DNA from: a virus
Lineage: Duplodnaviria > Caudoviricetes
Reading direction: 5' to 3' (one strand)
Virus record (IMG/VR): IMGVR_UViG_2936514734_000001
Location: 64,001-128,000 of that record
DNA length: 64,000 nt
Position 1 is the stretch's first letter. Each line of letters starts with the position of its first letter. The notes below the pieces were generated by a model, which had not been told where the DNA came from, did not search any database, and saw nothing but the letters and a program-made list of their open reading frames with translations. This document shows positions 2,439 to 26,735 of this stretch, in pieces. The position numbers were made by a program, and so were the translations under genes.

Positions 2439-2503
2439 GTTTCGCGTTATTAGCTCTATGCTAGTAATAAAAAAGAGTAGCTTTCCGAGGGCTACTCTTT
2501 TTG
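2439..2503 (+). ncRNA. Candidate ~65-nt sRNA (hairpin plus terminator)
   Basis: TGTTATAAT at 2424-2432; TTATTAGC/GCTAGTAATAA hairpin; GAGTAGC/GCTACTC-T5 terminator; no ORF. Confidence 0.4.
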
Positions 2504-2651
2504 TATATATTCTTCTATAAATTCATTATTAAGTCTCCATAAAAAAAACAAATTCCTACATAAATATGGTATAATTGTTATATAACTATGTTTTCGGGTG
2601 GGCGGTTGCTCTTTTCCTTGCTCTATTTTATAGAGGAAGGAGGTGACCGCT

Positions 2652-2816
2652 ATGGATGTTTTAAAAACTATTTTAGTAGAAATAGCAAAAGTAGTAACTC
2701 ATACTCTAATTAACTACCTAATAAGTCTCATTCCTACTAAAAAACACAAAAAGAAAACCTCCCGCAAAAAGTCATGGGCGACTAAAGGGAGGTCTTCTAA
2801 AAGATATAGAGCTTAA
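2652..2816 (+). CDS. Type I toxin-like 54-aa peptide MDVLKTILVEIAKVVTHTLINYLISLIPTKKHKKKTSRKKSWATKGRSSKRYRA
   Basis: Strong SD GGAGGTGA sequestered by GCGGTTGCTCTTTTCC; hydrophobic N-terminus and basic tail; TGGTATAAT at 2567-2575; terminator at 2851-2883. Confidence 0.75.
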   Translation: MDVLKTILVEIAKVVTHTLINYLISLIPTKKHKKKTSRKKSWATKGRSSKRYRA

Positions 2817-2888
2817 ATTGCAATCTTCCACCTGAATGTAGTAGTTGCTAAAGGCGAGATGTTACCAGCATCTCGTCTTTTTTATGTA
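2740..2888 (-). ncRNA. Convergent antisense antitoxin RNA
   Basis: Minus-strand TGGTATAAT at 2895-2903; hairpin AGAAAACCTCCC/GGGAGGTCTTCT (2752-2798) followed by a U-rich run on the - strand. Confidence 0.65.
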
Positions 2889-3084
2889 TAAACAATTATA
2901 CCAAATTTCCAAAAAAAAATATATAGGTAAAAACATAAAGGAGGAATTTAAACCCTTGATACTAAAGGGTTTATTTGCTTTTGAAATTCTTAAATTTAAA
3001 GATAAATACCCATAAATGAACAATATTATACATAAATATGGTACATTTGTTTAGTAGTTACATTTGAAAATAGGAGAGATGGGA

Positions 3085-3573
3085 ATGAGTTTTCAGTACA
3101 AAATAACAGATCAGAGTTATGATAAGGAATACAAAGTTTGGGAATATGATAAGATGAGAAAGGAATGTGCTCAACCGGGCGTATATATAATTACTGATAT
3201 TGCTCAAGAAATTCTTTATGTCGGTGAAAGTGAAAATGTTGGACAACGTGTTCGTGATCATATAACTGGAACTGAACAATCAAAACGTGGATTTATAAAA
3301 AGAATTTGCAATATAAGGATTTACCTTTTCGGTACATTAAATCGTGATATAACTGACATGAAAATGTGCGAACATTGGGCTAAAAGAGAATATCCACCAC
3401 TCTTTTCAAAAGATAGCATTGAGTACGATGGAGGAGATACTATTGAGTATTTATCTGACAGCTATACAGTCTGGGAGAATTGGCACAAATATTATGCTAC
3501 AGTAGATGACGAAGTAGTAGATGGAAAAGAATATCAAGAAAAACTTAAAGCAGCTAATTTGAAGCTAAAATAA
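3085..3573 (+). CDS. GIY-YIG nuclease family protein
   Basis: PGVYII…LYVGES…QRVRDH motif; SD AGGAGA favours ATG 3085. Confidence 0.8.
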   Translation: MSFQYKITDQSYDKEYKVWEYDKMRKECAQPGVYIITDIAQEILYVGESENVGQRVRDHITGTEQSKRGFIKRICNIRIYLFGTLNRDITDMKMCEHWAKREYPPLFSKDSIEYDGGDTIEYLSDSYTVWENWHKYYATVDDEVVDGKEYQEKLKAANLKLK

Positions 3574-3618
3574 AGGATTTTGTTTGACATCTTCTTTTAT
3601 AAGTGCAAAACTGTAGTA

Positions 3619-3690
3619 TATATTGGCTACTACTCATAGATTTTTTCTAGAGTAGGAAAAAGAGCAGACCTTTTGGCTTGCTCTTTTTTA
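3619..3690 (+). ncRNA. Candidate ~70-nt sRNA (hairpin plus terminator)
   Basis: TTGACA 3584-3589, 17 bp, TGnAAAACT (imperfect -10); CTACTC/GAGTAG hairpin; AAAAGAGCA/TGCTCTTTT terminator. Confidence 0.35.
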
Positions 3691-3867
3691 TATATTCTTC
3701 TTCATACCACAATTGATACATTCACGCAGGAATTTACCGTTACCTACGCTACTTTTAAACTTTACTCCGTTACAATTATCGCAACGGCCGCTGACTTTAT
3801 CAGGCATCTCACTGTATTCATAAATCTTTGTTAGATCAATATTTGCGTATTTATCTTCTTGTTCCAT
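3688..3867 (-). CDS. 59-aa zinc-ribbon protein (…GRCDNC…LRECINCGMKKNI), absent from the ORF track
   Basis: SD GAGGGA, two CxxC pairs, ends at a terminator. Confidence 0.75.
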   Translation of the reverse strand: MEQEDKYANIDLTKIYEYSEMPDKVSGRCDNCNGVKFKSSVGNGKFLRECINCGMKKNI

Positions 3868-3957
3868 CTTAATCCCTCACATTCTTTGCTTATCATAGCA
3901 ATATACATAATAAAAAGAAAGGTACTCGAATATATATGACGTAAAACTTTTTAATAC

Positions 3958-4056
3958 AAGAAAAACCCCCGACAATACTTTCATTGCCGAGGGCTTTTCG
4001 CTGTTGAGTAATTTGAATTTAATAAAGTAGTGGTAACGAGTTAGTGAGGCTCGTTA
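3958..4056 (-). ncRNA. Candidate ~100-nt sRNA
   Basis: Minus-strand TATAAT upstream; TAACGAG-CCTCACTAA-CTCGTTA hairpin; strong terminator at 3961-3998; no ORF. Confidence 0.45.
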
Positions 4057-4095
4057 AAATTATTATAGACATTTTTCTACATTATATTCTAACAG

Positions 4096-4410
4096 TTACC
4101 ATTTAGGTCCTTTAGGTAAATCCTCAAGCATCATCATGTGTTTTACTTTAGTCTTAGCATGTTTAACTTCTTTTTCAGCCTTTTCCAGATTGTCAATCTT
4201 TTTAGTAAATGTATCAAAATAGGACCCCATCTCCTGTTGGAAAGCATCCTTCGCGTTACCTGATTTCCACGTAGTTAATTCTTCAACTTTGTTTTTAACA
4301 AGTAACTGTTCGGCTCGCAAATCGGAAATGAGGGAGTCTAACTTGCTACTCAAACGGTCAAGATCATCTAATTCTCTTTTATATTTCTCTAAGTTTTTTT
4401 CATCCATCAT
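4096..4410 (-). CDS. Small helical WXG100-like partner of a T7SS substrate
   Basis: ~100 aa, helical, central W-K-S-G; overlaps the lipase stop codon. Confidence 0.65.
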   Translation of the reverse strand: MMDEKNLEKYKRELDDLDRLSSKLDSLISDLRAEQLLVKNKVEELTTWKSGNAKDAFQQEMGSYFDTFTKKIDNLEKAEKEVKHAKTKVKHMMMLEDLPKGPKW

Positions 4411-5546
4411 TTTAAAACATCAGCCTCCACAAACGATGCCGCTGCAGCATTCAAGTTATTTGCCATTCGAGAGGTATCCTCGGCAAACCAACTACTAAGA
4501 TTATGCGCTTGTCCAATTACATCGTTTACGACACCTTCAGATATTTGAATACCATCCAACATTGTTGCATCTCGTTTAAAGGAAGAACAAAGCTCTTCCA
4601 CCCGTGACACATAGCCTTCCAGTTCACTCGCTAAATTAATTAGATGTTCTGGCATAACATTGATTGTTGCCATTTCTCCAGAAGCATATCTAGGGGACTG
4701 TGCTAAAGACTGACCAGTTAGAATGTTTGTTAGAATAGGGTTGTTTAAATTACCTACACCATCAAATTTGAAGTGTTTCATATTATGATAACTTTCTCCA
4801 GCTAGTGAACCCCAAGCTCTTGAAACAGGGTTGTATCTATTCTTTGAGTTCTCAAGATCAAAGGAAGAACCGATGTAGTATGCGGAACCAATATATCTTT
4901 TATAAGGATTAACAGCTCCAGAACTTATAGAATCTTTAGGGTGAATGTAATTTACGATTTGTTTATCAAACTCACCCTTAACTGCTTTCTCTTTTAGATC
5001 TTTAGGAAGCAAGTTGATAACACTTGGTCCGTTAAACGTAACAGCTTCTACATTATTTTTAGCAGCTGCATAAGATGCAATGGACCCAGCCAAAGAGTGT
5101 CCTGTTAATTTAATATTGTAATCAGGATATTCTTTCTTTACATCTTGAACAAGTTTATCTCCCTGACGAAATTGATTCTTCTGATGGAAATCAACGGACA
5201 ACTTCCCGCTATCATATTCAATGTTTAAACCAAGACGATCAACCTTCTTGCCGCGTACAATATAAGTAGCATCGGTTTTTACGTCCGGCCATGCGCGTCC
5301 TTGTGTAACATTCTCTACTGAGTTGGCTTCAGTACCACGATAAGCAATAACTATATTCTTTTTGTTCTTTAAAACCAAGGCATCAAAACCAGTCTCTGCA
5401 TCATGAACTTTAAACTTTTTACTTTTTATAGTTGTCCATTTTTCATTACCATCTTCATAATGGATAGTATAAGATTTTCTAGGTTTGATATCGTAGGCAA
5501 AGCCACTTAGCTCACGAAACGTTCTATCCCTTACATCTGTAATCAT
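4407..5546 (-). CDS. Lipase (class 3/Mbeg1-like) with C-terminal WXG/LXG-like domain; probable T7SS toxin
   Basis: IAYRGTE, GHSLAG, TFNGP motifs; C-terminal INVMPEHL…FVEAD helical domain. Confidence 0.8.
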   Translation of the reverse strand: MITDVRDRTFRELSGFAYDIKPRKSYTIHYEDGNEKWTTIKSKKFKVHDAETGFDALVLKNKKNIVIAYRGTEANSVENVTQGRAWPDVKTDATYIVRGKKVDRLGLNIEYDSGKLSVDFHQKNQFRQGDKLVQDVKKEYPDYNIKLTGHSLAGSIASYAAAKNNVEAVTFNGPSVINLLPKDLKEKAVKGEFDKQIVNYIHPKDSISSGAVNPYKRYIGSAYYIGSSFDLENSKNRYNPVSRAWGSLAGESYHNMKHFKFDGVGNLNNPILTNILTGQSLAQSPRYASGEMATINVMPEHLINLASELEGYVSRVEELCSSFKRDATMLDGIQISEGVVNDVIGQAHNLSSWFAEDTSRMANNLNAAAASFVEADVLK

Positions 5547-5618
5547 AATTGAAGCCTCTCTCCTTATTAGTGTATAATTCTATTATATAAGAATTTCCAA
5601 GAATTTGGAGAGATATGG

Positions 5619-5918
5619 ATGATTAATAAGAAATTGTTTGGCTTTATTTTTATTATTGGAATACTACTTTTAACAGGGTGCGGCAAGGAGGACGACATGG
5701 ATAAGAAAGAGATAGAGAAAACCGCTTCACATGTAGCATCGGAATATATGAAAGTGGAAGAGGATATGGATTTTGTTGTTACTGGTGTAGACTTTTTCGA
5801 TGGTCAAGGAGTAACAACTGTAGCTGTTAATGGACATGAAAAAGGAAAGAAAAAAGAACTAGCAGTTATCATCGATTATGGTGATGATTATAGAGTGCAA
5901 GGGACAGCGGAAAATTAA
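5619..5918 (+). CDS. Small lipoprotein, probable immunity protein
   Basis: Lipobox LLTGC; divergent from the lipase toxin. Confidence 0.65.
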   Translation: MINKKLFGFIFIIGILLLTGCGKEDDMDKKEIEKTASHVASEYMKVEEDMDFVVTGVDFFDGQGVTTVAVNGHEKGKKKELAVIIDYGDDYRVQGTAEN

Positions 5919-6092
5919 TAAGAATAAACGAAAAAAGAACCTTTAGATATTGTATCTTTAGGTTCTTTTTTACTAATAAGAGAGCTGAGTTTATACGAGT
6001 TGGATATTGGAGTTTGCCATGTGTTGTAGTACCTTATCAAATATCCATCCATAATTGTATCCAGTTTTTTAAATAATATACATGGTTATGAA

Positions 6093-6400
6093 TCATTGTT
6101 TTTTACAATTATCGCAAGTTACAGGTATGATCTTTCCCGTACTTGTCATCATCGTACCGCTATTATTGTCTAATATAGATAAAGAGGTAATCACTCCGCT
6201 GATATTATTATATCTAACTGAGTCTCCAATATTTAAACCATACCAATCATTCATCAATACAGTTCACCTCTTTTAAATTTTTTACGACTATAGGAGCCTT
6301 TTCCTTTTTTATTCTTTACTACACGAGTTGAAGCATTAAAAGCCCATGTACCTCGAGTATTAGTCATCTCACCAATTGTTTTTAATTCTCTTTTACTCAT
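6093..6400 (-). other. Two short - strand ORFs (~50 aa each; MSKRELKT… from 6400, MNDWYGLN… 6093-6254)
   Basis: SD-like sequences upstream of both; below the track length cut-off. Confidence 0.45.
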
Positions 6401-6751
6401 ACCCAAACCTTCTTTCTTTACTATTAGTTAAATATCTTATATATAATTTCTGCATATCTATTAATAGAGAGTTTAATTACCTTACTTAATTGCTCACAAA
6501 TAAACCATAATAAGAATAAAGGTAACATTGGTATAATTACTAATATTGTTAGTAAAAGAGTTAACCAAGAAATGCTTGGTACACCCATCAAACTTATCAC
6601 CACCAGTTAAGTAAATAGTAAATTACTTTAGTAAATATGTTTTATCATTTACCTAGTTTGTAGAAAAAGTGCGTATTTGTCGTCACCTAGAGTAATACCT
6701 GTAACTTTAAAATTCGAACAGACTTATAATATTTACTTCATTAAGTTGATA

Positions 6752-6898
6752 CAAAGAAAAAGACAGTCGGGGGATGACTGCCTTCTTCAAGTGAGGGAGG
6801 AATGATAATAATGAAGTAAGTAATATTAAGAAAGGTTAAAACAAGTTCGTATTCACGGGGAGTGTGAAGAGATAAAACTTGTGAGGTAACTTACATTC
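6752..6898 (-). ncRNA. Candidate ~145-nt C-rich sRNA
   Basis: CUCCCC, UCCUCCCU and AUCCCCC motifs; terminator AGGCAGTC/GACTGTCT plus U-run whose G-U pair indicates the - strand. Confidence 0.55.
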
Positions 6899-6998
6899 TT
6901 AATAAAACCTTTTCATTTATAAAATGCAAACATTAATTTATACAAAATAAAAACGACTACCAAAGAGGGAGCCGCTTGTATTTATTCCTAATATTAAA

Positions 6999-7301
6999 TT
7001 ATAGCTTCATAAAGAAATCATTAACTGTATAATTAGTTTCGTATTTCTTATTAACCATTTCAATTGCCGCTTTAAACCTAAACATCGCATGCCTATCTTC
7101 ATAGTTATCGCCATATAGAAGGTAATTACAGAATGATATCTTGGTTAAGCTTATAACCATCAAATCTTTAAGATCTGGTTCATCAAAGTTTTCATATATT
7201 AACTTATAAAAGTTATCTAGTCGATTAAGCAGAGATTTTTCTGTAACCAAAATTGAATTCTCAACTTTCGTCCTTCCCATATGTACATCACTCGCTTTCA
7301 T
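6999..7301 (-). CDS. Hypothetical protein (start may be 7280)
   Basis: ORF with a downstream terminator at ~6948-6978. Confidence 0.55.
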   Translation of the reverse strand: MKASDVHMGRTKVENSILVTEKSLLNRLDNFYKLIYENFDEPDLKDLMVISLTKISFCNYLLYGDNYEDRHAMFRFKAAIEMVNKKYETNYTVNDFFMKL

Positions 7302-7321
7302 CTTTGTATATACAATAGAAA

Positions 7322-7435
7322 ATAGAAAAAAGTTAGTTTTACTATCATCCGGTTGCTAACGTTAAGGATTCATCACTACACTAGAAGAAGAATGGTATCG
7401 ATATCCGGATAATAATTTAACTAACTTTTTTCTAT
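7322..7435 (-). ncRNA. Long irregular hairpin, candidate structured RNA
   Basis: Perfect 17-bp arms at 7322-7338/7419-7435 plus an inner stem whose two C-A mismatches become G-U on the - strand. Confidence 0.45.
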
Positions 7436-7550
7436 CAATCAATAGTCGGCTTTTGCAAAATACAGGTGTGTTGCTTTTTTCACATTTTCATTTTTACCAA
7501 ATAAATGACTTATATACATTTTATAGAATTTTATTTTGAAATATATGAGT

Positions 7551-7700
7551 ATTATGGGGCAAGGGATAGTACCACTATCATTTAGTTGCGTAACAGAAGA
7601 ACAAGCTTACAGCTACAGGGTTAATTGTGCCACTAAATTTAAGATCGACTATCCGTTGCCTTGGACCTTACATAATACCAGAAGTACGGTGAAACACCGT
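7551..7700 (+). ncRNA. Long irregular hairpin, candidate structured RNA
   Basis: GGCAA-GGATAGT/ACTATCC-TTGCC, ATTTAGT/ACTAAAT, GCGTAA/TTGTGC (G-U on +); short hairpin at 7686-7700. Confidence 0.45.
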
Positions 7701-7809
7701 TGAATTCCACCGCATTTTTATTATTACTAATTAACTGGATATATATTCATCTTTTTCTTACAGAATAGTCCAATACATGGTAAAATCAGGTTAGATACAA
7801 ACAGAAAAA

Positions 7810-8586
7810 TTGAATATAGGAGAGTGGCCGGGGATGAGCTTAAGCATTAATGAGATAATAAAAAACAAAAGAATTTTTGAAATAGACGACGATTGCAATT
7901 ACTTCATCTTAGACGAGGACAAGATCAAAAAATGCATGTATTTTGACTACGTTATTGCTATAAAACATGGCGATTTACCTTACCCTAAAAAGTGGTTAAG
8001 GTTCTTTGATGTCGAACATCCCATAAAGGGACAGGTAATACCTATTGAAGAATACAATAGCGATGACTATGAATATGTTTTTATGCCGTACTTTAAATTT
8101 CCTGATGAACTCAAAAAGCCGCTTGAAGAATTAGGATATACTATAGATAAGGATTATAAAGCTGAAAATTTTTTAATTGAACTAGATAAAATTCCAGAAC
8201 AACTTCTACCTGTTGTTAAGAATATGATCATTGAGAATCAAGAACATAGTAGTGGACCAGAACAAAACGACTTTTATGTTTATGAGAAAGACGGTGAATT
8301 AGTTTATTTTTTAGTGGGCAAAGAGGAGGGTTTTGTTAATACTATTACCGATGAAGTAACAACTAAATTCCAAGATATAAAAACTTTAGAGGCATATGAA
8401 ACTCCATCTAAAGATACTTATTTATTTAAAACTAAAGACCCGCTTAGCAGCTATAGTTCTGAACGTTGGTTCGTATATCTAACTGCAGATCCAAATTTTC
8501 CGCGCCTTAAAGAAGTGGATGAAGTAGCAGACATGTTACCATATACATCTTTTAAAGCAACTGAACCAAAAGTTGAAGTTAAATAA
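7810..8586 (+). CDS. Hypothetical acidic protein (start may be 7834)
   Basis: Long ORF, TGGTAAAAT upstream, terminator at ~8605-8632. Confidence 0.7.
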   Translation: MNIGEWPGMSLSINEIIKNKRIFEIDDDCNYFILDEDKIKKCMYFDYVIAIKHGDLPYPKKWLRFFDVEHPIKGQVIPIEEYNSDDYEYVFMPYFKFPDELKKPLEELGYTIDKDYKAENFLIELDKIPEQLLPVVKNMIIENQEHSSGPEQNDFYVYEKDGELVYFLVGKEEGFVNTITDEVTTKFQDIKTLEAYETPSKDTYLFKTKDPLSSYSSERWFVYLTADPNFPRLKEVDEVADMLPYTSFKATEPKVEVK

Positions 8587-8684
8587 AATAGGTGAGAATT
8601 ATTTAGCAGACAGGTTAAACTGTCTGTTTTATTTTTCTTTTACATCTCGATATAATAAGTTGTTTTTTAGATATGAAGACATAG

Positions 8685-8792
8685 CAAAAGACGGCCGAAG
8701 CCGCCTTATACCATAAGTTTTATCTTATCTAAAACAAAACTAATAATGTAGAACCTATTAACAAGAGAAAATCTTTTTTCTATATATATATG
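8685..8792 (-). ncRNA. Candidate ~107-nt four-way-junction sRNA
   Basis: TTGACA(8821-8826)-17-TGnTAAATT promoter; enclosing ACCATA/TATGGT stem with three arms; UUCG terminator; no ORF. Confidence 0.6.
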
Positions 8793-8876
8793 GTGTTAAT
8801 TTACCATGAAAGTTCTATTTTGTCAATTTTTTTATTCTGTCTCAATAGGATAAGTATTCTTAAATAAATGAGATAT

Positions 8877-8903
8877 AAAAAAGAGCGACCGAAGTCGCCC
8901 AAA
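8877..8903 (-). terminator. UUCG-loop intrinsic terminator next to dif
   Basis: GGGCGAC-TTCG-GTCGCTC-TTTTTT on the - strand. Confidence 0.75.
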
Positions 8904-8980
8904 CGATTTTATTCTACCTATAAACTTAATGCACTCCTATTTTATTGTAGCATAAGCACCCCTCTTTCTTAAAATAAATT

Positions 8981-9008
8981 GGTTCCTATAATATATCTTA
9001 TGTAAACT
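8981..9008 (+). other. dif: dif site (CodV/RipX, XerC/XerD-type)
   Basis: GGTTCCTATAA-TATATC-TTATGTAAACT versus B. subtilis dif ACTTCCTAGAA-TATATA-TTATGTAAACT: 24/28, XerD arm identical. Confidence 0.85.
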
Positions 9009-9076
9009 AGAAAAAGAAATAAGAGAAAAGCTTACCCTTTTTTGAGTAAGCCTACATTATATAAATTCTATAAATT

Positions 9077-10240: not shown

Positions 10241-10382
10241 CGAATCTCTCCCCTTAGTTATATGTAACTATCCACTTGCTATGACTATGATACTACTAAA
10301 ATTCCAGCAGAACCACATATTCTCATATTCAAATTTCGACAAAAAAAAGAGCAGCTTAACGCTACTCTTCTTGTGTACACGA

Positions 10383-11666: not shown

Positions 11667-11842
11667 TAACATTTCTCCTCTCTTATACATCAAATATAGA
11701 TTTGCAAAAAGATGCTATATTTCTACAACCTTGGATATATTTACTTATAATTATAGCAAAAAAAAAGAGAGTAGTCGCGACGAACCACTCAAAAACTACC
11801 GATTAGATTAACTTGAGAAATTAATGTGTAGAATAGTATGAA

Positions 11843-11870
11843 CCACATTATGTCATATCTTATGTAAACT
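11843..11870 (+). other. Second, half-degenerate dif-like site
   Basis: CCACATTATGT-CATATC-TTATGTAAACT: XerD arm perfect, XerC arm degenerate. Confidence 0.65.
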
Positions 11871-11895
11871 AGAAAAGGAAATAAAGGAAACCTAC

Positions 11896-12659
11896 TCATT
11901 TCTGATTTAGGATTTCTAAGTGTTTTTGATAGTCTAGATAATATTCTAATGTTCTTTCATATTCATTTGCTTTATTAGCATACTCTAGGTTAATCTTCTT
12001 TTTAATATCATCATTAATGACTAATTCATCATTGTAAATATTTTTCTTTTTCATGTTATTTAGTCTGCTATGATATTGTTTAGCGGAGTTTTCTCCAATT
12101 TTAGTTTTAGTGTGTACATCTGTTAAGTAAGTTGGAAAATTCATAAGTAACCTCCTAGTTAACATAATGTAATTTAAAAAGGAAATCTTCCTGGTCCATT
12201 AACTCGCTGAGGTTCAGGTGCGTAAAAGCTACAATAACCGAAGTGGTAACATTTCATTTTATAAAGAATCACTAAAGCTTTTATTGTATTCATTTTGTCT
12301 TGAAGCCCTTTTCCCTCAGCATAAGAAAAAATATGGCTTTCGACTTCCTTGATCTCTGCTTCTAATTTGATTTTTATATTTTCTTGCATTTCCCTATCTT
12401 TTTTTAGGTACTCATACCATTCCTTCTCTGATTCCTCTTTTGGCTCAGGAGGCATTTCTCTTTTGTTCATAATTTCAGGTACACATATATCTTTTGCATT
12501 AGAATAAATCTTTGCTAAGCTTATTTCGATATACCTTTCGCTATCGACACCAAATTCATGAAAATACGAACATATATTGTCTCTATACTCATTAATTTCT
12601 TCTTTTAGTTTCCTTTTAACTGTTTCTACTATCTCTTTATCTGTATCAAAATCAATCAT
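11896..12659 (-). other. Two hypothetical CDSs (11896-~12144 and 12174-12659)
   Basis: SDs AGGAGG upstream of both. Confidence 0.65.
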
Positions 12660-12780
12660 AGCGAATCCCTCCTGTTACACTTATTTGTTTCTCCTAGATT
12701 AAAAAATGCATAACGTAAACATATTCTTCATCTAATTCAATAATCCTTCTTAATTAGAAAAAAATTCTTATTTTGACATA

Positions 12781-12862
12781 GAAAAAGCGGCTAACATAGT
12801 TAACCGCCTCTTCAAGCTTTTTAAATTGATTTCATTTTACGTTGTAATTGTTGAACATTGCT
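12781..12862 (-). ncRNA. Candidate ~80-nt sRNA
   Basis: TTGTTC(12891-96)-17-TGnTAAAAT(12868-73); GCGGTTAAC/GTTAGCCGC-T5 terminator; no SD-led ORF. Confidence 0.45.
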
Positions 12863-12938
12863 GTTTAATTTTAACATGGGTATTTTTGTGGAACAACGGT
12901 AATTGTTTCCTTCAAAGGAACATTAATCCTTTTGAGAC

Positions 12939-13124
12939 TCATAAGTCTTTTGGATATTCATAAACCATTTGCATTTGGAAAATATCATGCTCTGTAATGT
13001 TTAATTTCTTCAGTTCTCCTTGAAATGAACGCCATGGTTCGATACGAATTACTCTTTTAGTACCATTTCTAAGTGTGTATATCCTATACATAACTTCTGG
13101 TGGCTTTTCATAACGTTTAGACAT
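12939..13124 (-). CDS. Small hypothetical protein
   Basis: SD AGGAG; TGGTATAAT at 13206-13214 on the - strand. Confidence 0.65.
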   Translation of the reverse strand: MSKRYEKPPEVMYRIYTLRNGTKRVIRIEPWRSFQGELKKLNITEHDIFQMQMVYEYPKDL

Positions 13125-13151
13125 TTTTAACTCCTAATGATATAATTAAGT

Positions 13152-13205
13152 TTCTAGTTGTATTTTTGCTAAAGAGAGTATTACCTTTTGGTAATGCTCT
13201 TTTTT
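13152..13205 (+). ncRNA. Candidate antisense RNA over the 5' leader of 12939-13124
   Basis: TAGACA(13118-23)-17-TGATATAAT(13138-46); AGAGTATTACC/GGTAATGCTCT-T6 terminator. Confidence 0.5.
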
Positions 13206-13229
13206 ATTATACCAAAGATTTTAACAAAG

Positions 13230-13697
13230 CTAGGCAGCCACACTTACTTTTTCCTCCAATAGTTGATAAACCTTATCTAGTGATAATTTTTTAATTTCTC
13301 CATGATCAATCAAGTAAAAATACTTATTACATCTTACATAGTCTTTATATACAACCATGTCTTCAGCGGAGAAACTTTCTCCCATTTGAATAAAGTGAGT
13401 TCCGCTATCTCGTAATAACCACAGACCTTTCTTATCTCCTTCTAAATATGAATATAGATCATGAAGGTAAAAGTCATTTTGATAATGAGATAAATGCCTA
13501 CTAACAACCTTCTCCATTTCAAGTAGTTCAGGATAATTAGCAGGATCATGTCCTTCTGGAATAGCCCAGTTTTTTGTTTTATACTTCTCATTTAATTCAC
13601 TTACTTTATCGTATAACTCTGACAACAGCGGGTCTGTAAGCGTTTCTCGTTCAATCCATCTACCGTCTGTATATGTGTAAAAAATAATATCTGTCAT
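13230..13697 (-). CDS. Hypothetical protein
   Basis: SD AAGGAGAG, LLRDSGTH motif. Confidence 0.7.
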   Translation of the reverse strand: MTDIIFYTYTDGRWIERETLTDPLLSELYDKVSELNEKYKTKNWAIPEGHDPANYPELLEMEKVVSRHLSHYQNDFYLHDLYSYLEGDKKGLWLLRDSGTHFIQMGESFSAEDMVVYKDYVRCNKYFYLIDHGEIKKLSLDKVYQLLEEKVSVAA

Positions 13698-13764: not shown

Positions 13765-13950
13765 TTAACTATTTTTCAGTCCGGGTTGTGGGTAAGCAGT
13801 GTTGATTTCTGCTAAAGTTTTTAATACTTCATCACTAGAAAACTGTAGTCTCTTCATATACTCCTCAGTATATCTACGTCTCGCTGATGAAGGCTTAGAG
13901 GAAATAACTACAACTTTACCATTATCATACCGTTTTTTCTGAACAGTCAT
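13765..13950 (-). CDS. Small protein coupled to the DUF4062 gene
   Basis: ATGA overlap, SD AGGAGGG. Confidence 0.65.
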   Translation of the reverse strand: MTVQKKRYDNGKVVVISSKPSSARRRYTEEYMKRLQFSSDEVLKTLAEINTAYPQPGLKNS

Positions 13951-15134
13951 GATTGAATCCCTCCTATTAAATCAGCTACAAAGTTTATAAGCAGGATGTT
14001 ATTACTCATTATAGCATATTCCACTTCGTCCTTGTAAGAGTTAGCTTGTAGGTCTGTCCATTTTTTCTCAATTAACGGATAATGAAAACATAATACAAAC
14101 TCTTTGGACTTAATTGTATAGTAAAGCAATTCTTTTGCTTCAGAATAACCTATTTCTCCATTATCACTAGTATAACAATTCACTACATATGAAGTATCAT
14201 CAGACAAATCATACTCTTGAGTTGGTGTTGTTTCACCGCAACAGCCACAAAGCTTCATTTTTCCATTATCTTGTTTGTAAACAGTCATAGCATTACAACT
14301 ACCAATTGTATTTACTTTCTTTTGAGTTCTTGTACCTGGACGTATAAAAATTTCTCCGCCACTTAACTGAACTCTAGCTGTGTTTAAAAACTCTCCCCAG
14401 TCAACTACTTTTCCATTATCTATAAACGATAATAATGAAGTTGTATACTCCTGATACTGTCGCAAGACTTTTGCGGCATCTGCATTTACAGCCATGCTTT
14501 CTTTATGTGGAATCAGCTTGATTCCTTGACCTAAATGATCACTAAAGTAACCATTAATTTTCTGATAAAATTCTGGTGAACGGGATATGATAAGATCCTC
14601 TGTCCAAACTCGTGCACGCTGAACATCAAAAATAAACGCCCACAAAAAAGGATGAAATCTTTTCTCTTTCAACATATCTCTTTGTGCATCACCCAAATTG
14701 TTTTGAATTACTTCCTCAACTATATCCATTGTATAATTAGGTTCGCGATGATTTGTTTCCATATATTCTTTATAGCGTTTGTTTAAAGGTGTCTTAATAT
14801 GCTCGTCATAAACGCGTTTTATTTTTTCGTCAAAGAAAGCGATAACATACTTTTTCTCCTCAATTGCTGTAAAGAATTCTTCATATGTAGGTGTAGTTTT
14901 CGCCTCTTCCCAATACGTTCCAACATAGTTGTTTACAAGCAGGATAAAAATATCACATTCTTTAACCTTCTGTATACAAGTCTCCATTGTGTCATCAGCC
15001 CAAGGGTAAAAATTCTCCTCAAACAACAAAGGCTGATGGCCCGAAGATTCTAAATGTGCTTTTAAATCTTGTCTTAACGGTTTTAGATCGTCATCATATG
15101 CTGAGCTAACAAAAATCTTAGCTGGATTTGGCAT
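13947..15134 (-). CDS. DUF4062 (TIR/NDT-like) domain protein with unknown, possibly GAF-like, C-terminal domain
   Basis: KIFVSS…DL…R, C…VKECDIFILLV, TYEEF…A motifs. Confidence 0.75.
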   Translation of the reverse strand: MPNPAKIFVSSAYDDDLKPLRQDLKAHLESSGHQPLLFEENFYPWADDTMETCIQKVKECDIFILLVNNYVGTYWEEAKTTPTYEEFFTAIEEKKYVIAFFDEKIKRVYDEHIKTPLNKRYKEYMETNHREPNYTMDIVEEVIQNNLGDAQRDMLKEKRFHPFLWAFIFDVQRARVWTEDLIISRSPEFYQKINGYFSDHLGQGIKLIPHKESMAVNADAAKVLRQYQEYTTSLLSFIDNGKVVDWGEFLNTARVQLSGGEIFIRPGTRTQKKVNTIGSCNAMTVYKQDNGKMKLCGCCGETTPTQEYDLSDDTSYVVNCYTSDNGEIGYSEAKELLYYTIKSKEFVLCFHYPLIEKKWTDLQANSYKDEVEYAIMSNNILLINFVADLIGGIQS

Positions 15135-16612: not shown

Positions 16613-16613
16613 A

Positions 16614-17488: not shown

Positions 17489-17781
17489 GTTTCTTCCTCC
17501 TCTCCTTTTATGTAACATAAGCCTTTCAGATAAAACGTCAATAAGTAAAATAAAAAAAGAGCCCATTACAGGCTCCTTAATTTATGTATTTCATCTATTA
17601 AATTCAACAACTTATCGATAGCTTCCTTACTATTTACTTCTACTCTGGTAGGCGCAAGAGATTGTAGCTCGATTAGCATTTCAATTAAAATAGCTTCGTA
17701 CATTGAAACACTCCCCTTTTCTAACTAGTATAGAAAGTATTTAGTCGTTGTCAAGAAAGATGAAATAAAAGAAATATTTTA

Positions 17782-18036
17782 CTATGCCGCTTTATAAAGA
17801 TCAACGATCTCTTCAAGCTCAGCTGGATTATATTTAAGAGTACGCTTAATTTCCTTGTCACCATCCATAAGAATAACAACAGGAACACCATATCCAATTT
17901 TTAATTCAGCGGCTTTTTTAGCGCCTTCAGAATCCATTACATTATAAGATGTAACCTCTACACCTTGATCTTCTAAGTAATTACTTACAGGTACACAAGT
18001 AGTGCAACTCGGTTGATAAAATTTAAGAATTTCCAT
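17782..18036 (-). CDS. Thioredoxin/NrdH-like redoxin
   Basis: KFYQPSCTTC and cis-Pro GVPV; follows the RNR genes. Confidence 0.85.
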   Translation of the reverse strand: MEILKFYQPSCTTCVPVSNYLEDQGVEVTSYNVMDSEGAKKAAELKIGYGVPVVILMDGDKEIKRTLKYNPAELEEIVDLYKAA

Positions 18037-18063
18037 ATTAATACCGTCCTTATTTATTAAATC

Positions 18064-19113: not shown

Positions 19114-19139
19114 TATTTATTCCTCCAAGGTGTTTTATA

Positions 19140-21452: not shown

Positions 21453-21492
21453 GTAAATTCCTCCCTTAATGTTTTTTAAATTCCCGAGCGGC

Positions 21493-21508
21493 AAACTACA
21501 TATAGTAG
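21493..21508. promoter_or_regulatory. Probable NrdR box
   Basis: AAACTACATATAGTAG resembles acaCwAtATaTwGtg, immediately upstream of nrdA. Confidence 0.55.
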
Positions 21509-21640
21509 CTCGCTTCGTGAAAGGTCAGTTTTTAATACAACCATTAGATATTAAAAAGTCAAACTGATTTATGAACAAACTAATGTTCTAAATTTAGACA
21601 ATAAAAAAGACTCAGGGTTATATCCTCAGCCTTTAAATAC

Positions 21641-22027
21641 TTATCCAGTTTGTGTATTTCTTTCTGGTGTTTCTACAAGAAAAGATACATTCTCATAAAT
21701 TGTAGAGCCACTTCCAACGGTGCTAGTGCCATGGTTTATATGGCTAATAAGCCCTTCAAACTCTTCACCACTGAAAAATATGAGATGCACTTTGTTTTGC
21801 TTGCTCATATCTATTTCATTAGGAATAATAGCTTGATTAAAGTTTAAATTATACCCTAAGAATGGATGATGATCTCCTATCTTCATTGGCGAACCATCTT
21901 CATGAACAGGATTCCCCATTGTATACATAACAACTGTTCCCTCTGGTCCACCTATTGGACTAACATGACTATCTTGAAACTTGATTTGATGATGATTAAT
22001 CCAACAACTTTTTAAAGCTTTGTTCAT
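21641..22027 (-). CDS. Hypothetical protein
   Basis: ORF downstream of rtp with SD GGGGTG. Confidence 0.6.
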   Translation of the reverse strand: MNKALKSCWINHHQIKFQDSHVSPIGGPEGTVVMYTMGNPVHEDGSPMKIGDHHPFLGYNLNFNQAIIPNEIDMSKQNKVHLIFFSGEEFEGLISHINHGTSTVGSGSTIYENVSFLVETPERNTQTG

Positions 22028-22038
22028 TCTTTCACCCC

Positions 22039-22425
22039 TTATCTAACAGGGCCGTAATGATCCTCTAAAGCTTTATCCAATAACCCCCTACACCGTTCAA
22101 GCTCAACTTTCATTTGCTTCTTATAAAGGTCATATTCTTTCTTTCCTTCATCCGTAAGTGAGTATAGGATAATCTCTTGAAAATCAACGCCCTTCTCCCC
22201 TTTGATTTGGCGTTCCCTTTTGACTAACCCATCCCTAGTCAATTCGTGTAATACTTTATATGTTTCTGTATGAGTAGGTTCATACCCATACTGTTTAAAT
22301 TCTTTACGTAAATCCCCTAAATATTGAGACGCATACCCTTTATGCTTATCAATTGTCTTGTATATGTATAGCTTCAAAAATGCACGTTGCTTTAATAAGA
22401 AACCTCTATTTTTAAACTCACTCAT
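22039..22425 (-). CDS. rtp: Replication terminator protein (winged helix)
   Basis: GFLLKQRAFLKLY…PTHTETY…LHEL…QEI…LYKKQMKVELERC…KAL closely matches B. subtilis RTP. Confidence 0.9.
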   Translation of the reverse strand: MSEFKNRGFLLKQRAFLKLYIYKTIDKHKGYASQYLGDLRKEFKQYGYEPTHTETYKVLHELTRDGLVKRERQIKGEKGVDFQEIILYSLTDEGKKEYDLYKKQMKVELERCRGLLDKALEDHYGPVR

Positions 22426-22449
22426 TATATACACACCTTTCGAAAGTGT

Positions 22450-22471
22450 AAAACCATGTTCTATTGATTCA
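22450..22471 (+). promoter_or_regulatory. Ter site (RTP-binding)
   Basis: AAAACCATGTTCTATTGATTCA versus B. subtilis TerI core AAAACTATGTACCAAATGTTCA. Confidence 0.65.
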
Positions 22472-22563
22472 TCTTATATTATTATACATTTATTAGGATT
22501 TACCTTCAAAAAATATACAGATTTGAATGAATCCGTCTTATAAGCTAACGTATTAATAACTAT

Positions 22564-22585
22564 TGAATATTTGGAACATGGTTTT
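22564..22585 (-). promoter_or_regulatory. Ter site (RTP-binding), inverted partner
   Basis: Reverse complement AAAACCATGTTCCAAATATTCA, 19/22 to the TerI core. Confidence 0.8.
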
Positions 22586-22768
22586 TGAGAAATATAATAG
22601 AGGTTATCTTCTAGATTGTCGCATGTAATGACTGCAACTTTCGCATCTGTAATCGCTATATGTACAAGGACATTTAGGACGTTTTTTCTCTACAGAATGC
22701 ACAGCGATCACGATGATAACTCCAATGGATAAACCAATAATTAGAGCTGTCATTCTATACCTACTTTC

Positions 22769-23422
22769 TTAAGAAGTTGTTTGAAGCCTTTTGTCTCTTA
22801 GACGTTTTAAACGCTTCTCTATTCCAGTAGAAGTCCTTCCCATTATTTCTGCAATCTTTTTCTGTGGCATATTCTCTTGATAATACAATCTCCACAGTTG
22901 GTCATCTTGCTCAGTTGTCCAAGGCTTTCTTTTATTTGCCCATCTATAAAAATCTTCCTTACGTCTTTCATCTAACCAATCAGGCTCAAAAGGTAGTGAA
23001 TATTGCGGAACATTATGCCAATTGATCAAGTGTTTATGTTCTTCAGCCCATTTCCAGAACTTCTTAGGGTTAATGTAATAAGAAAGTTGTTTTACATTAA
23101 CAGCTCCGTTTCTACCGTTTTTAACTCTTCTAATTCGGAAGTCTCTTTGTTTAGCCGGTAAACCGTGATTAGTAATCATTCGCTTAACCGCTTTATCATC
23201 TATGCATAAACATTTAGCAAGCTGTCGAACAGTTAACATTCCACACGCTATTTTTGTATTAGATATGCCTAATTTTTCAGCTTTGCTTAATACCGCTTCA
23301 GGTGTTCTGCCAAGCTTCTGAGCAATCGCACTCATAGACAGCGATCCAATATATGTTTCAAGATATTCAATTTCTTCTTCAGTCCAATGTTTACCACTAC
23401 GATCAGTCATAAAGTTGACCAC
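22769..23422 (-). CDS. Multi-HTH (WT..E Myb-like repeats) DNA-binding protein
   Basis: WTEEE…IAQKLGRT and WTTEQD…IAEIMGRT. Confidence 0.75.
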   Translation of the reverse strand: MVNFMTDRSGKHWTEEEIEYLETYIGSLSMSAIAQKLGRTPEAVLSKAEKLGISNTKIACGMLTVRQLAKCLCIDDKAVKRMITNHGLPAKQRDFRIRRVKNGRNGAVNVKQLSYYINPKKFWKWAEEHKHLINWHNVPQYSLPFEPDWLDERRKEDFYRWANKRKPWTTEQDDQLWRLYYQENMPQKKIAEIMGRTSTGIEKRLKRLRDKRLQTTS

Positions 23423-23547
23423 CTTTCATCTTGTATACACAATGCTAAAACAACATAAGCTTTTCATATCAAAAGTAAATATGTCATTAGTCTCAAATTC
23501 AAGCATTGAAAAATTTTTGTAATAAATCAGGAATATTTTTCTTTACA

Positions 23548-23559
23548 GAACATCTGTTC
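23548..23559. promoter_or_regulatory. LexA/DinR (SOS) box
   Basis: GAAC-ATCT-GTTC just downstream of a - strand TGATATAAT (23562-23570). Confidence 0.55.
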
Positions 23560-23580
23560 TTATTATATCATGTTATTATA

Positions 23581-23661
23581 GTTAAGAAACAGTTATAAAA
23601 CCTAAACCAAAAAACCTAAACCTCACTGAAGAAGCAGCTAACTACCATGGCTGCTTTTTCT
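23581..23661 (+). ncRNA. Candidate ~80-nt sRNA with tandem AAAACCTAAACC repeat
   Basis: TGTTATTAT at 23571-79; AAGCAGCT/GGCTGCTT-T terminator; no ORF. Confidence 0.4.
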
Positions 23662-23710
23662 CATGTTCTCATATTCTGAAACAAAAAAGCCACCCATAAG
23701 GGTGACTCAG

Positions 23711-24607
23711 TTATTGTTTCTGGATAAGTTTATAAATATTTATAAGACCATTTCCAAAGTTGTCATCGTCGCCTGCTTCTCCGAGATCAACAGAGCGGTC
23801 ATGAATTAATTGCATAATTTGGTCAGGTGATAGTTTTTGTCCTGATTTACGAGCAAGTGATTCAATAAGAGCAATAACTCCTGCAACCATAGGTGTTGCC
23901 ATTGAAGTACCGGATAGTTTTGCATAACTACCATTTTTATACGTACTATAAATGTCTACACCAGGAGCCGCTACATCTAATTCATTACCGAAGTTAGAGA
24001 AGTTTGCTTTTCCAAATGCTTGGTCAATTGCACCAACAGCAATTGTTTCTTCATACACTGCAGGCCAACCTACATGAGTATTTTCATTACCTGAAGCAGC
24101 TACAATAATAATACCTGCATCATGTGCACGTTTGAAAGCTTGATGGAATGCAGGGCCCGGATCAACAGGACAACCTAGACTCATAGAGATGATGTCCACT
24201 TGTTCTTCTATTGCCCAATCAATTCCTTTGATAATAGCATCAATAGAACCTGAACCATCATCACCTAGAACCTTAGCAATATATAATTGTGCTCGTGGTG
24301 CTACACCAACAACTCCTACCATATTGTCACAAGCAGCAATAATACCTGCACAGTGACTGCCATGACCTTGACGATCTACAAAGTCGGTAGGGTTTGAAGT
24401 AGTAAAGTTGATACCTTTTACAATGTTAGGTGCTAAATCTGGATGTTTAGGATCAATGCCTGTATCTAATACCGCTACTTTGATTCCTTCTCCTTTTGTA
24501 AGAGACCAGATTTGAGGAGCTTGAACTAGGCTTACACCCCAGTCAATAACTTGTTTTGGTGAAGTAGATTGAACCTCAAGTACTTCAGATTGGATTTTAA
24601 ATTCCAT
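23711..24607 (-). CDS. Intracellular subtilisin-family (S8) serine protease
   Basis: VLDTG, GHGSH, SGN, GTSMATP; no signal peptide. Confidence 0.9.
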   Translation of the reverse strand: MEFKIQSEVLEVQSTSPKQVIDWGVSLVQAPQIWSLTKGEGIKVAVLDTGIDPKHPDLAPNIVKGINFTTSNPTDFVDRQGHGSHCAGIIAACDNMVGVVGVAPRAQLYIAKVLGDDGSGSIDAIIKGIDWAIEEQVDIISMSLGCPVDPGPAFHQAFKRAHDAGIIIVAASGNENTHVGWPAVYEETIAVGAIDQAFGKANFSNFGNELDVAAPGVDIYSTYKNGSYAKLSGTSMATPMVAGVIALIESLARKSGQKLSPDQIMQLIHDRSVDLGEAGDDDNFGNGLINIYKLIQKQ

Positions 24608-24825
24608 AGGAACTCCTCCTTTAATCGATTACCAAAGAAAAATAACCATTTGATTAAAGGGGCTCAATCTTAAACTCTGTTGTCTCCCAACTTCATAACA
24701 ATAAAAAAAGGTGAGAACAATGTCCCACCCGTTTTACTTAGGACTAAATATGATTTCTAAGATTGCGGCTGTTAAATCCGCTAGTGCTTCAAAGAGACCA
24801 TGATGCCTCCTTTTTCTTCTTGCCA

Positions 24826-26007
24826 TTATAGGAACAGACCTACAATCGTCGCTGATAATACAGACGCCATTGTTGCTACTAATAGCATTTTCATACCAAA
24901 CTTAGCAACGCCCGCACCTTGTTCTTGAGAAAAACTTTGTACTGTTCCTTGAATGATTCCAATAGAAGAGAAGTTAGCAAAACTAATTAAGAATGTTGAA
25001 ACGATACCCACAGTTTTAGCAGATAATGCTCCCATAATTGGTCCAAAACCAAGCATAGCTACAAACTCATTCGCTACAATCTTTGTAGACATAACACTTC
25101 CTGCTTTAACCGCTTCATCCCAAGGCACACCCATGATCCATGCAACTGGAGATAAGATATAACCTAGGATAGTTTCAATCTTCATACCTACTAAACCTGT
25201 AACTGCCCAGTTAACCATTGCTAGTAATCCAACATAAGCGATAAGCATAGCAGCTACAATAGCGGCTACTTTTAATCCGTCAATTGCACCATTACCAACC
25301 GCTTCAAAGAATGTCTTTTCTTTCACCATATCTTTGATGTTAATATCAGCGTTGTCTTCTTTAACTGGTGCTACGATAGTAGAAAGGATTAATCCACTTA
25401 GAACATTCAATGGTAATGCAATTAAAACATATTCAGGCGGTACCATTTGCATGTAAGAGGCTACAATAGAAGCGCTTACACTAGTCATTGAAGCTGTAGT
25501 TGCTACGAATAGCTGATTACGGTTAAACGAAGGAATGTGGTTTTTAATCGCTAATAAAGCACCTGTATCTCCAAATACAGAAGATGCAATTGTACTAAAT
25601 GAAAGAACTCGTGGTAGTCCTGTAATCTTTGCAATTAATCCACCAAGATATTTAATAAGTAGCGGTAAAATTCTGATATAGTTTAAGATACTTAGAATAG
25701 TTGAAGTAAACACAATCAGTAATAATACGCTAATAACGAAAACAGATTTACCTTCAGGAACTAATCCACCAACTACAAAGTTGATACCTTCTGTCCCGAA
25801 AGTCATTAGCTTAGAGAACCCGTTTGCAATCGCCGTTAGGATTTTACCTCCAATGCTTGTGTGTAGCATAAATGCTGTAATAACCAACTGAAGTACGAAT
25901 AAAATACCTACCGCTCGATAATTGATATTCTTCTTATCATTTGATAGTAAGAACGCAACTCCAAACGTAATAACGATCCCTAAAATGCCTACTAAAATAC
26001 CTGTCAT
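24826..26007 (-). CDS. nupC: NupC/CNT-family nucleoside transporter
   Basis: EGINFV, SMTSVS, KIVANEFVAM, SFANFSSIG. Confidence 0.9.
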   Translation of the reverse strand: MTGILVGILGIVITFGVAFLLSNDKKNINYRAVGILFVLQLVITAFMLHTSIGGKILTAIANGFSKLMTFGTEGINFVVGGLVPEGKSVFVISVLLLIVFTSTILSILNYIRILPLLIKYLGGLIAKITGLPRVLSFSTIASSVFGDTGALLAIKNHIPSFNRNQLFVATTASMTSVSASIVASYMQMVPPEYVLIALPLNVLSGLILSTIVAPVKEDNADINIKDMVKEKTFFEAVGNGAIDGLKVAAIVAAMLIAYVGLLAMVNWAVTGLVGMKIETILGYILSPVAWIMGVPWDEAVKAGSVMSTKIVANEFVAMLGFGPIMGALSAKTVGIVSTFLISFANFSSIGIIQGTVQSFSQEQGAGVAKFGMKMLLVATMASVLSATIVGLFL

Positions 26008-26090
26008 TTTGAATCTCCTTCTTCTTATTTATTTGTCGGAAATTAAAATAAGCAGTTAACTTATCAAAGTCAACTGCCATTCTCAAATAT

Positions 26091-26603
26091 TTAACTGCAG
26101 ATTCTACTAAACTCTGAATCAACAATTTGTAGCTTGTCACATGCAATAAAGTCATGTGGATATATAACTCCATCTTTGTCAGGGAATAGTTCGATACCTA
26201 CTCGTCTGAATACTTCATCCACCAATTCGGTACAAATATAACTGTTCTTCCCATTTAGGTGTTTTAATAATTTTGTGTTTGGAAATTTTGTTTTCAGAAA
26301 CAGATTAATCAGCATAAGCCAATCATATCTATTTCCGGTCTTGTTAAACGCACAAGCATTAGAAGTAATGTTTACTTGTTGATTTGCTGTTAAAGGTTTT
26401 TTACTTCTTAACACAACATGCTCAAACTCACCAAACGTATAAGGATCTTTAACAAGTGTTGCTTTCGTGTTCCAATCAATTTCTAAAACATATCCACCGC
26501 CAACATAAAGGGCGACATGCGTCCATTTAGAGCCGACTGTCTTTTGAATTGCTTTAGAAATGATACTGTTACCACTAACAACAAAGATATCTCCAATTTT
26601 CAT
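26091..26603 (-). CDS. YiiX/YebB-like permuted NlpC/P60 (papain-like) hydrolase
   Basis: GD…WTHVALY…RYD…YICTEL. Confidence 0.8.
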   Translation of the reverse strand: MKIGDIFVVSGNSIISKAIQKTVGSKWTHVALYVGGGYVLEIDWNTKATLVKDPYTFGEFEHVVLRSKKPLTANQQVNITSNACAFNKTGNRYDWLMLINLFLKTKFPNTKLLKHLNGKNSYICTELVDEVFRRVGIELFPDKDGVIYPHDFIACDKLQIVDSEFSRICS

Positions 26604-26628
26604 AGAGGCATTACCACCTTTCCAAGTC

Positions 26629-26735
26629 GAAAAAAAGGGAGGCCTCTAATTAGAGACCCCCAAGAAGAGAGAGAAAGAAGTAAGAAGGAGAAATAACATA
26701 ACAAACACATAGGAGGATACATATCGTATGATGAA
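26629..26735 (-). ncRNA. Candidate ~105-nt pyrimidine-rich sRNA with anti-SD motifs
   Basis: TATAAT at 26742-47 (-); UCCUCCU, UUCUCCUU, (CU)n; GGGGGTCTCTA/TAGAGGCCTCC-T7 terminator. Confidence 0.5.

Follow-up and report, generated by a model that had tools for sequence, protein, structure and literature searches.

Temperate phages are known to make antisense RNAs, among them OOP of lambda, Sar of P22 and C4 of P1, and Firmicutes possess C-rich trans-acting small RNAs (sRNAs) such as RoxS/RsaE, FsrA and RNAIII, whose unpaired C-rich motifs seed pairing with Shine-Dalgarno (SD) sequences. Lambda aQ is likewise a temperate-phage antisense RNA (PMC12197685), and SviR of the Vibrio cholerae satellite PLE is a trans-acting sRNA that lowers a phage capsid-region protein (bioRxiv 10.1101/2022.04.08.487710). 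The prophage SPbeta carries the type I toxin-antitoxin systems bsrG/SR4 and yonT/SR6 (PMC5848175). How jumbo plasmid prophages are kept quiescent is poorly understood; for pBtic235, control of transcription by LexA/gp7 has been described (PMC9700832). Here, we have analysed a window of 64,000 nucleotides (bases 64001-128000 of the 239,374-bp virus record IMGVR_UViG_2936514734_000001), for which an initial annotation had proposed about a dozen riboregulators, and suggest that one of these units, sRNA-B, is probably an antisense RNA that is encoded by the phage and acts in trans on the mRNA of its own major capsid gene.

Proteins encoded in the window are 77-86% identical to those of pBtic235 (B. 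thuringiensis) and of Cytobacillus and B. velezensis plasmids. Judged by these matches, the 239-kb record is a pBtic235-like jumbo plasmid prophage. The parts of sRNA-B, in positions of the window, are as follows.

26629..26737 (- strand): sRNA-B, ~108 nt, with a 5' hairpin bearing an anti-SD loop, a C/U tract and an intrinsic terminator at 26631-26661; the 5' end is a prediction
26710..26724 (- strand): seed of sRNA-B, complementary to the SD sequence and spacer of the major capsid gene
26742..26800 (- strand): upstream block of sRNA-B, with a TATAAT-like box at 26742-26747 and a TTG box at 26771-26776 at non-canonical spacing

sRNA-B is a conserved non-coding unit with its own terminator. 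It was found in seven replicons and is conserved at 80-92% in pBtic235, G004, Cytobacillus pN497, B. velezensis pAD3, KBAB4 pBWB401 and H3 pH3-552, with a fold z of -4.2; the alignments also show a conserved GTCGAGAG motif at 26793-26800 in the upstream block. An open reading frame (ORF) of 8 codons on the strand opposite 26629 was considered and set aside, as it is not conserved and the alignments hold no conserved ORF on either strand.

The anti-capsid assignment draws on computed conservation, complementarity, reciprocity and decay of the seed where the capsid gene has been lost. The seed is conserved, accessible and complementary to the start region of a distant mRNA: the predicted target gene lies outside the window (G000:224163-225269, + strand), 133 kb from sRNA-B, and encodes the major head protein (PHROG 3922, E 5.6e-24), as which it is also annotated in relatives. 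When the seed was compared with ~250-285 translation starts, the capsid gene was top of the ranking in three genomes (this one, G004 and pBtic235) and came second in Cytobacillus and pAD3. The predicted duplex has 14-16 contiguous pairs over the SD sequence and spacer and 6-8 more upstream, and BLAST independently linked the seed to the same capsid site in pBtic235 (E 0.003). In a reverse search with the capsid start region over both strands of each whole genome, sRNA-B came out as the top-scoring site in each of the five capsid-bearing replicons, at pairing energies of -26.6 to -31.2 kcal/mol. The combined z of the capsid gene was -7.0, that of the next gene -4.4, and when alignment columns were shuffled with the anti-SD core fixed, 0 of 462 and 1 of 442 shuffles reached the observed combined score, which corresponds roughly to p 0.01 after allowing for the handful of seeds tried.

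Changes in the seed differ between replicons with and without the capsid gene. Among the capsid-bearing replicons, all four seed substitutions turn a Watson-Crick pair into a G-U pair, so that pairing is kept. The megaplasmids pBWB401 and pH3-552, which carry a phage remnant without a capsid gene, retain the RNA and its terminator, but their seed has three pairing-breaking transversions (Fisher p 0.029); net binding is roughly halved, from -18 to -27 kcal/mol in capsid-bearing replicons to -6.5 to -15.5 kcal/mol in these two. The anti-SD loop of sRNA-B is predicted to be fully open, and opening the capsid target, predicted to be single-stranded behind a conserved leader hairpin, would cost 4.6 kcal/mol. 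The region upstream of the capsid gene (L173:4960-5163, G000 ~224040-224162) contains conserved motifs besides this hairpin, whose stem varies yet stays paired in four replicons. More distant phages of the family showed neither sRNA-B nor the capsid target motif, and no analogous anti-capsid RNA was found in the distant G732 and G733, where the RNA-model search had no positive control.

Published RNA-seq of pBtic235 hints indirectly that the sRNA-B locus is transcribed in the lysogen. The gene following sRNA-B rose by only 0.96 log2 after mitomycin C, compared with 4.2-4.7 for the neighbours on either side (PMC9700832, Supplementary Data 1), and it is absent from the list of genes lowered by GIL01, on which its neighbours appear (PMC9700832). 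The small rise would fit a high uninduced baseline.

Several observations weigh against sRNA-B as an anti-capsid RNA. In this genome by itself the capsid score is unremarkable (z -3.5, where other units reach -3.2 to -6.2), and the case therefore rests on conservation, for which there are few independent lineages: pBtic235 and G004 are near-identical at sRNA-B, and pBWB401 and pH3-552 represent one lineage, in which the hairpin of the RNA is weakened by these seed changes too. Seed and target showed no double-sided covariation, nor did the internal structure of sRNA-B covary above shuffles. The upstream block received no call in the sigma-70 scan and departs from a canonical sigma-A promoter, and the position of the RNA's 5' end is itself predicted. 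The RNA-seq pattern is open to other readings, and under gp7 plus mitomycin C the gene behind sRNA-B drops together with its neighbours (-3.35) (PMC9700832).

How sRNA-B could act is suggested by its structure and by the established behaviour of C-rich Firmicute sRNAs. The 5' hairpin would present the anti-SD motif in an open loop that contacts the SD sequence of the capsid mRNA, after which the weak, G-U-rich stem would unzip. The resulting duplex of 14-16 bp, with its 6-8 additional pairs, would cover the SD sequence, the spacer and perhaps the AUG, and block ribosome loading. Transcription of sRNA-B, its timing, the repression and its purpose are what we infer: made in the lysogen, the RNA could set a threshold that absorbs leaky capsid transcripts, or delay capsid synthesis, and after induction it would be swamped. 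Since the seed of this genome pairs with the capsid start region of pBtic235 at -35 kcal/mol, it could also act on related superinfecting phages.

A second unit, sRNA-A, is conserved as well.

6752..6894 (- strand): sRNA-A, ~143 nt, with an invariant 5' motif, a nested stem with a C-rich loop, a C/U tract and a terminator
6899..6929 (- strand): conserved promoter-like block of sRNA-A, with a TTGCAT/TTGACG/TTGACA box, AAAAGGTTT and a weak -10
6254..6400 (- strand): ArfA-like gene for a ribosome-rescue factor (Pfam PF03889, above cut-off)

Searching with a covariance model gave 14 sRNA-A loci, several of them close kin, in pBtic235-like replicons, Peribacillus-group genomes and metagenomes; none was found in the phage collection. 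In their alignment 94% of cells are paired and four pairs are changed on both sides, counts that are biased towards the model because the alignment was fitted to it. The fold z is -6.4. The structure is conserved independently of neighbouring genes, as the promoter-like block, 5' motif, stem and terminator are kept while the neighbours vary over at least five gene families. In pBtic235, G004 and pAD3 (and probably G041) the ArfA-like gene stands directly behind sRNA-A, and here 350 nt behind it. A non-coding segment that is repeated in more than 100 Priestia plasmids (window 6602-6760) has been inserted between the two, along with a 54-aa membrane ORF. In pBtic235 the ArfA-like gene rises by 4.2 log2 after mitomycin C, and its upstream neighbours change by no more than 0.9 (PMC9700832). 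As the upstream genes stay nearly flat, the sRNA-A promoter may be lytic, with read-through feeding arfA, and sRNA-A would perhaps be made on induction.

For sRNA-A, no conserved phage target stood out from the null: its best one has a combined z of -3.7, equal to the null mean of the sRNA-B column-shuffle test. The start region of an ssb-like gene was tried and rejected as a conserved target, because its good pairing here and in pBtic235 is not shared by Cytobacillus or pAD3. In a few Bacillales genomes, a pattern search matched the 5' motif to the start regions of dnaK, groEL, rpsR and trxA; these host matches are sporadic, and each recurrence comes from a near-identical genome pair. We read sRNA-A as a second conserved structured sRNA with three C-rich motifs, and probably an SD-pairing regulator.

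The initial annotation had described eleven ORF-less units, most with a promoter-like site and a terminator, and two long hairpins, mostly near dif, as a possible set of stand-alone riboregulators, several of which expose anti-SD motifs and which could reprogram host translation during lysogeny. The hairpins are indeed where they were placed, with fold z of -3.4 to -6.8 for 2439+, 3619+, 3958-, 6752-, 8685-, 12781-, 13152+, 26629- and 7322-; that at 7551+ is less marked (z -2.2), those at 8877- and 11757- are weak (z -1.1 and -1.6), and that of 23581+ lies at 23633-23660, outside the segment used for its fold z. Terminator-like sites are about twice as frequent as in shuffles (13 vs 6.6±2.9; 12 vs 6.8±2.5). 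Promoter-like sites are rarer than in shuffles (53 vs 73.6; 31 vs 49.8), so that individual promoter calls carry no weight. A local excess of units does exist, as eight of the genome's ten promoter-plus-terminator gaps lie at 60-100 kb, but the termini of three relatives have no such cluster, and the gap scan is crude and insensitive, missing both conserved RNAs.

The further properties ascribed to the set hold only in part. Anti-SD motifs are present in only two of the eleven units, 6752- and 26629-, and these are also the only ones with homologues among the four fully searched related replicons; the other nine have no anti-SD motif, and searches of related replicons and of the collections gave no conserved RNA homologue for them. 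Of the units proposed to be without an SD-led ORF, 8877- has an SD sequence and an ATG. Nor are the units wholly unrelated in sequence: a copy of the same dif arm stands next to 8877- and another next to 11757- (83% over 53 nt). The conserved 6752- and 26629- behave as stand-alone sRNAs would, but several hairpins lie close behind the stop codons of adjacent genes. No unit reaches an Rfam gathering threshold (RsaE, BsrG, SR4-type, 6S and riboswitches included), and relaxed thresholds gave nothing credible. The best-supported sRNA, 26629-, lies 17.6 kb from dif, in a block of conserved genes outside the variable terminus, and is predicted to act on the capsid mRNA of the phage itself rather than on host mRNAs. 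Probing host genomes by pattern revealed no conserved host target for sRNA-A or sRNA-B. With conservation and an anti-SD seed in two of eleven units, a dozen-strong, host-directed repertoire is not borne out; what was proposed is reduced to two conserved sRNAs, one antitoxin-like RNA and background.

Other explanations have to be weighed against sRNA-B as an anti-capsid RNA. That 26629- and 6752- serve the genes that follow (YiiX-like plus nupC, and ArfA-like) as 5' leaders or attenuators, with an incidental capsid match, we judge unlikely. It would agree with the next start codon lying 20-35 nt behind the terminator in most loci, which leaves no room for a promoter, and with the position and induction of the ArfA-like gene behind sRNA-A described above; but sRNA-A precedes such diverse gene families, pAD3 retains sRNA-B where nupC follows and a YiiX-like orthologue was not found, and the capsid-less plasmids retain the YiiX-like gene yet lose the seed. 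A dual role of the sRNAs through read-through is possible. It seems very improbable that sRNA-B serves chiefly as a sponge for RoxS, a host sRNA of the RsaE family, or that it targets other mRNAs, for example that of a phage RuvC-like gene (window 51063-51545, + strand). With the 5' part of some host RoxS copies, sRNA-B from this genome, pBtic235 and pAD3 forms 9-12 contiguous pairs, but this match is post-hoc, was measured on surrogate hosts and is absent for Cytobacillus; the seed has 11-14 pairs with the start region of the RuvC-like gene in this genome and pBtic235, a match that is missing in Cytobacillus and pAD3, and both duplexes are weaker than that with the capsid mRNA.

That a dozen terminus riboregulators reprogram host translation in lysogeny, as initially annotated, is quite improbable. 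The local density of promoters with terminators, the strong hairpins, the very good promoter at 13118 and the matches of the sRNA-A 5' motif to host start regions would speak for it; on the other side stand the nine units lacking homologues and anti-SD motifs, the many hairpins that serve neighbouring genes, the relatives without a cluster, and the sporadic host matches repeated only in near-identical genome pairs. We give hardly any credence to the reading that there is no functional RNA and that the conserved blocks are DNA sites or untranscribed remnants: the missing Rfam match and the promoter motifs below chance would agree with it, but strand-specific terminators are kept with pairing-preserving changes, and neither the 80-92% conservation over four host genera nor the reciprocal capsid match would be expected. 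An anti-capsid sRNA-B is thus the reading that we favour.

The units that are not conserved are listed below.

2439..2503 (+ strand): extended -10 and two hairpins, no homologue of the transcribed part
3630..3690 (no strand): bidirectional terminator with a second hairpin ahead, between convergent GIY-YIG and zinc-ribbon genes
3958..4060 (- strand): promoter-hairpin-terminator unit without homologue
7322..7435 (no strand): inverted repeat with 30-bp arms, of which the close relative L116 holds one only
7551..7720 (+ strand): long irregular hairpin and terminator-like tail; the core is 87% kept in L116, the outer stem is not
8685..8960 (- strand): two terminators behind dif (8685- and 8877-)
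11757..11850 (- strand): terminator by the second dif arm, behind gene 11896-12144
12781..12870 (- strand): terminator and 3' untranslated region of the frameshifted small gene 12939-13124
13118..13205 (+ strand): strong sigma-A-type promoter (11/12 plus TG), no homologue
23542..23665 (+ strand): promoter, A/C-rich repeat and terminator; pBtic235 and pAD3 lack this DNA

Many of these lie close to gene ends. The 3619 hairpin is 3 nt behind 3688-3867 (- strand) and 87 nt behind the GIY-YIG gene, and same-strand genes end 101 nt upstream of the terminator at 3958-, 105 nt at 11757- and 130 nt at 12781-. The unit 3958- is shaped like an orphan antitoxin, or could be the 3' end of the lipase-WXG100 operon. 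The transcript of the 13118 promoter, 55 nt, would be nearly all hairpin, and this hairpin lies ~25 nt behind gene 13230-13697 (- strand). Since L116 has one arm only, the 7322 repeat is probably a recent inverted duplication. L116, a metagenome locus, was the sole match to 7322 and 7551 in searches of plasmids, 301 Bacilli genomes and viral contigs, and a 55-aa ORF that would make 7551+ coding is not conserved. At 8877- there is an SD-led minigene of 3 codons here and 14 codons in two Priestia plasmids, apparently a remnant next to dif that is common to Priestia plasmids. Orthology between the promoter of 2439+ and that of a pBtic235 gene was considered but is not supported, since the 40 nt in common fall within the upstream region of the divergent gene. 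Searches over 3575-4095 and 12660-13230 matched small genes and bare terminators, not the proposed RNAs. The small gene at 12871-13124 (- strand) has an apparent frameshift near its 3' end and homologues on B. cereus-group plasmids, and an A/C-rich tandem motif at 23595-23625 (+ strand) precedes the terminator on private DNA. Absence of homologues does not prove absence of transcription, and 13152+, 2439+, 3958- and 7551+ may be candidate transcripts.

One module, 2581-2900, was not among the units annotated initially.

2581..2883 (+ strand): type I toxin-like mRNA with an extended -10, an SD-sequestering leader, a 54-aa ORF at 2652-2816 and a terminator
2746..2888 (- strand): convergent antisense RNA over the toxin 3' end, fold z -4.6, with an extended -10 at 2895-2903 and a terminator

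The ORF has an apolar N-terminal half and a basic tail, with modest hydrophobicity (best 19-residue mean 1.38), and the leader folds over its strong SD sequence. The module thus combines a small hydrophobic ORF, a sequestered SD sequence and a convergent antisense RNA with its own promoter and terminator. The extended -10 of the antisense RNA is retained in three homologues, and the same arrangement is found on plasmids of Priestia, Peribacillus and the B. cereus group. A sub-threshold Rfam BsrG match (2582-2876; 20.6 vs 55 bits) coincides with the predicted mRNA, and the ORF belongs to no Pfam or NCBIfam family. We regard the two as a candidate toxin and a candidate antitoxin RNA of a bsrG/SR4-type pair.

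The surroundings of dif are made up largely of private DNA.

8981..9008 (+ strand): dif-like site, 24/28 to the Bacillus consensus, common to Priestia plasmids
11843-11870: XerD-arm copy of dif
3920-3947: degenerate dif copy

GC skew reverses near window 3700. At 70-80 kb of the genome, 2 of 17 genes have orthologues in at least two relatives, and pieces of this region match Priestia plasmids, which suggests a Priestia host. The one full and two partial dif-like sites bracket private gene cassettes, resembling dif-module accretion. An xerS gene was not found in this genome; XerS is encoded by three relatives, in which no site resembling this dif was found. The absent xerS and the Priestia-matching dif segment suggest a switch to host Xer resolution. 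The remaining units appear to be a by-product of cassette traffic near dif, comprising terminators of neighbours, decayed plasmid cassettes and the one type I toxin-antitoxin-like pair. Among other genes of the window, 4096-5918 encodes a lipase-domain protein with a WXG100-like tail, a partner and a divergent small lipoprotein, and looks like an antibacterial effector-immunity pair whose effector is secreted by a type VII system; a DUF4062/TIR-like protein (13947-15134, - strand) is a possible anti-phage defence gene. A group I intron-like match below cut-off (Rfam RF00028, E 2.8e-7; 32959-33325, - strand) sits between the ORFs 31917-32915 and 33293-34555.

Taking both sRNAs together, we tentatively propose, with distinctly less confidence than we have in the capsid pairing, that pBtic235-like phage-plasmids may use a trans RNA made in the lysogen to lock capsid translation of their own and of superinfecting relatives, atop transcriptional control, with a second conserved sRNA that acts on induction. 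If true, the assembly step would be controlled post-transcriptionally as well, and related phages might be subject to RNA-based interference; the predicted capsid pairing is precise to the nucleotide.

Compared with the systems described above, the module 2581-2900 resembles bsrG/SR4 and yonT/SR6 in its small apolar, basic-tailed ORF, sequestered SD sequence and convergent, 3'-overlapping antisense RNA, but falls far below the Rfam BsrG cut-off and belongs to neither a Pfam nor an NCBIfam family. pBtic235 of Bacillus thuringiensis israelensis (PMC9700832) shares the phage group, 81-85% protein identity and both sRNAs, although both loci are unannotated in its records; in NZ_CP051859, sRNA-B corresponds to 92415-92542 and sRNA-A to 109454-109609. 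Our literature search, from whose coverage subscription journals were mostly missing, found no paper on sRNAs of pBtic235 or on a phage that targets its major capsid gene with a trans-encoded RNA of its own, and a review of phage sRNAs mentions neither Bacillus nor capsid. Like RoxS/RsaE, FsrA and RNAIII, sRNA-A and sRNA-B have unpaired C-rich motifs for SD pairing, an intrinsic terminator and a length of 100-150 nt; they differ in being phage-encoded and without Rfam match, and sRNA-B in forming one long dedicated duplex. SviR resembles sRNA-B in that it is predicted to mask a ribosome-binding site within the capsid region of a phage. It belongs to an unrelated host group, however, and comes from a satellite that directs it at another phage, with gp120 rather than the major capsid protein as its target, whereas sRNA-B is the phage's own. 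In lambda aQ and OOP, P22 Sar and P1 C4, as proposed for sRNA-B, a phage RNA restrains its own lytic programme by base-pairing; their targets are regulators (Q, cII and antirepressors) encoded opposite or near the RNA, whereas the predicted target of sRNA-B is a structural gene 133 kb away. Phage antisense RNAs against lytic regulators are thus known already, and what would be new here is that a phage encodes such an RNA in trans to its own major capsid gene.

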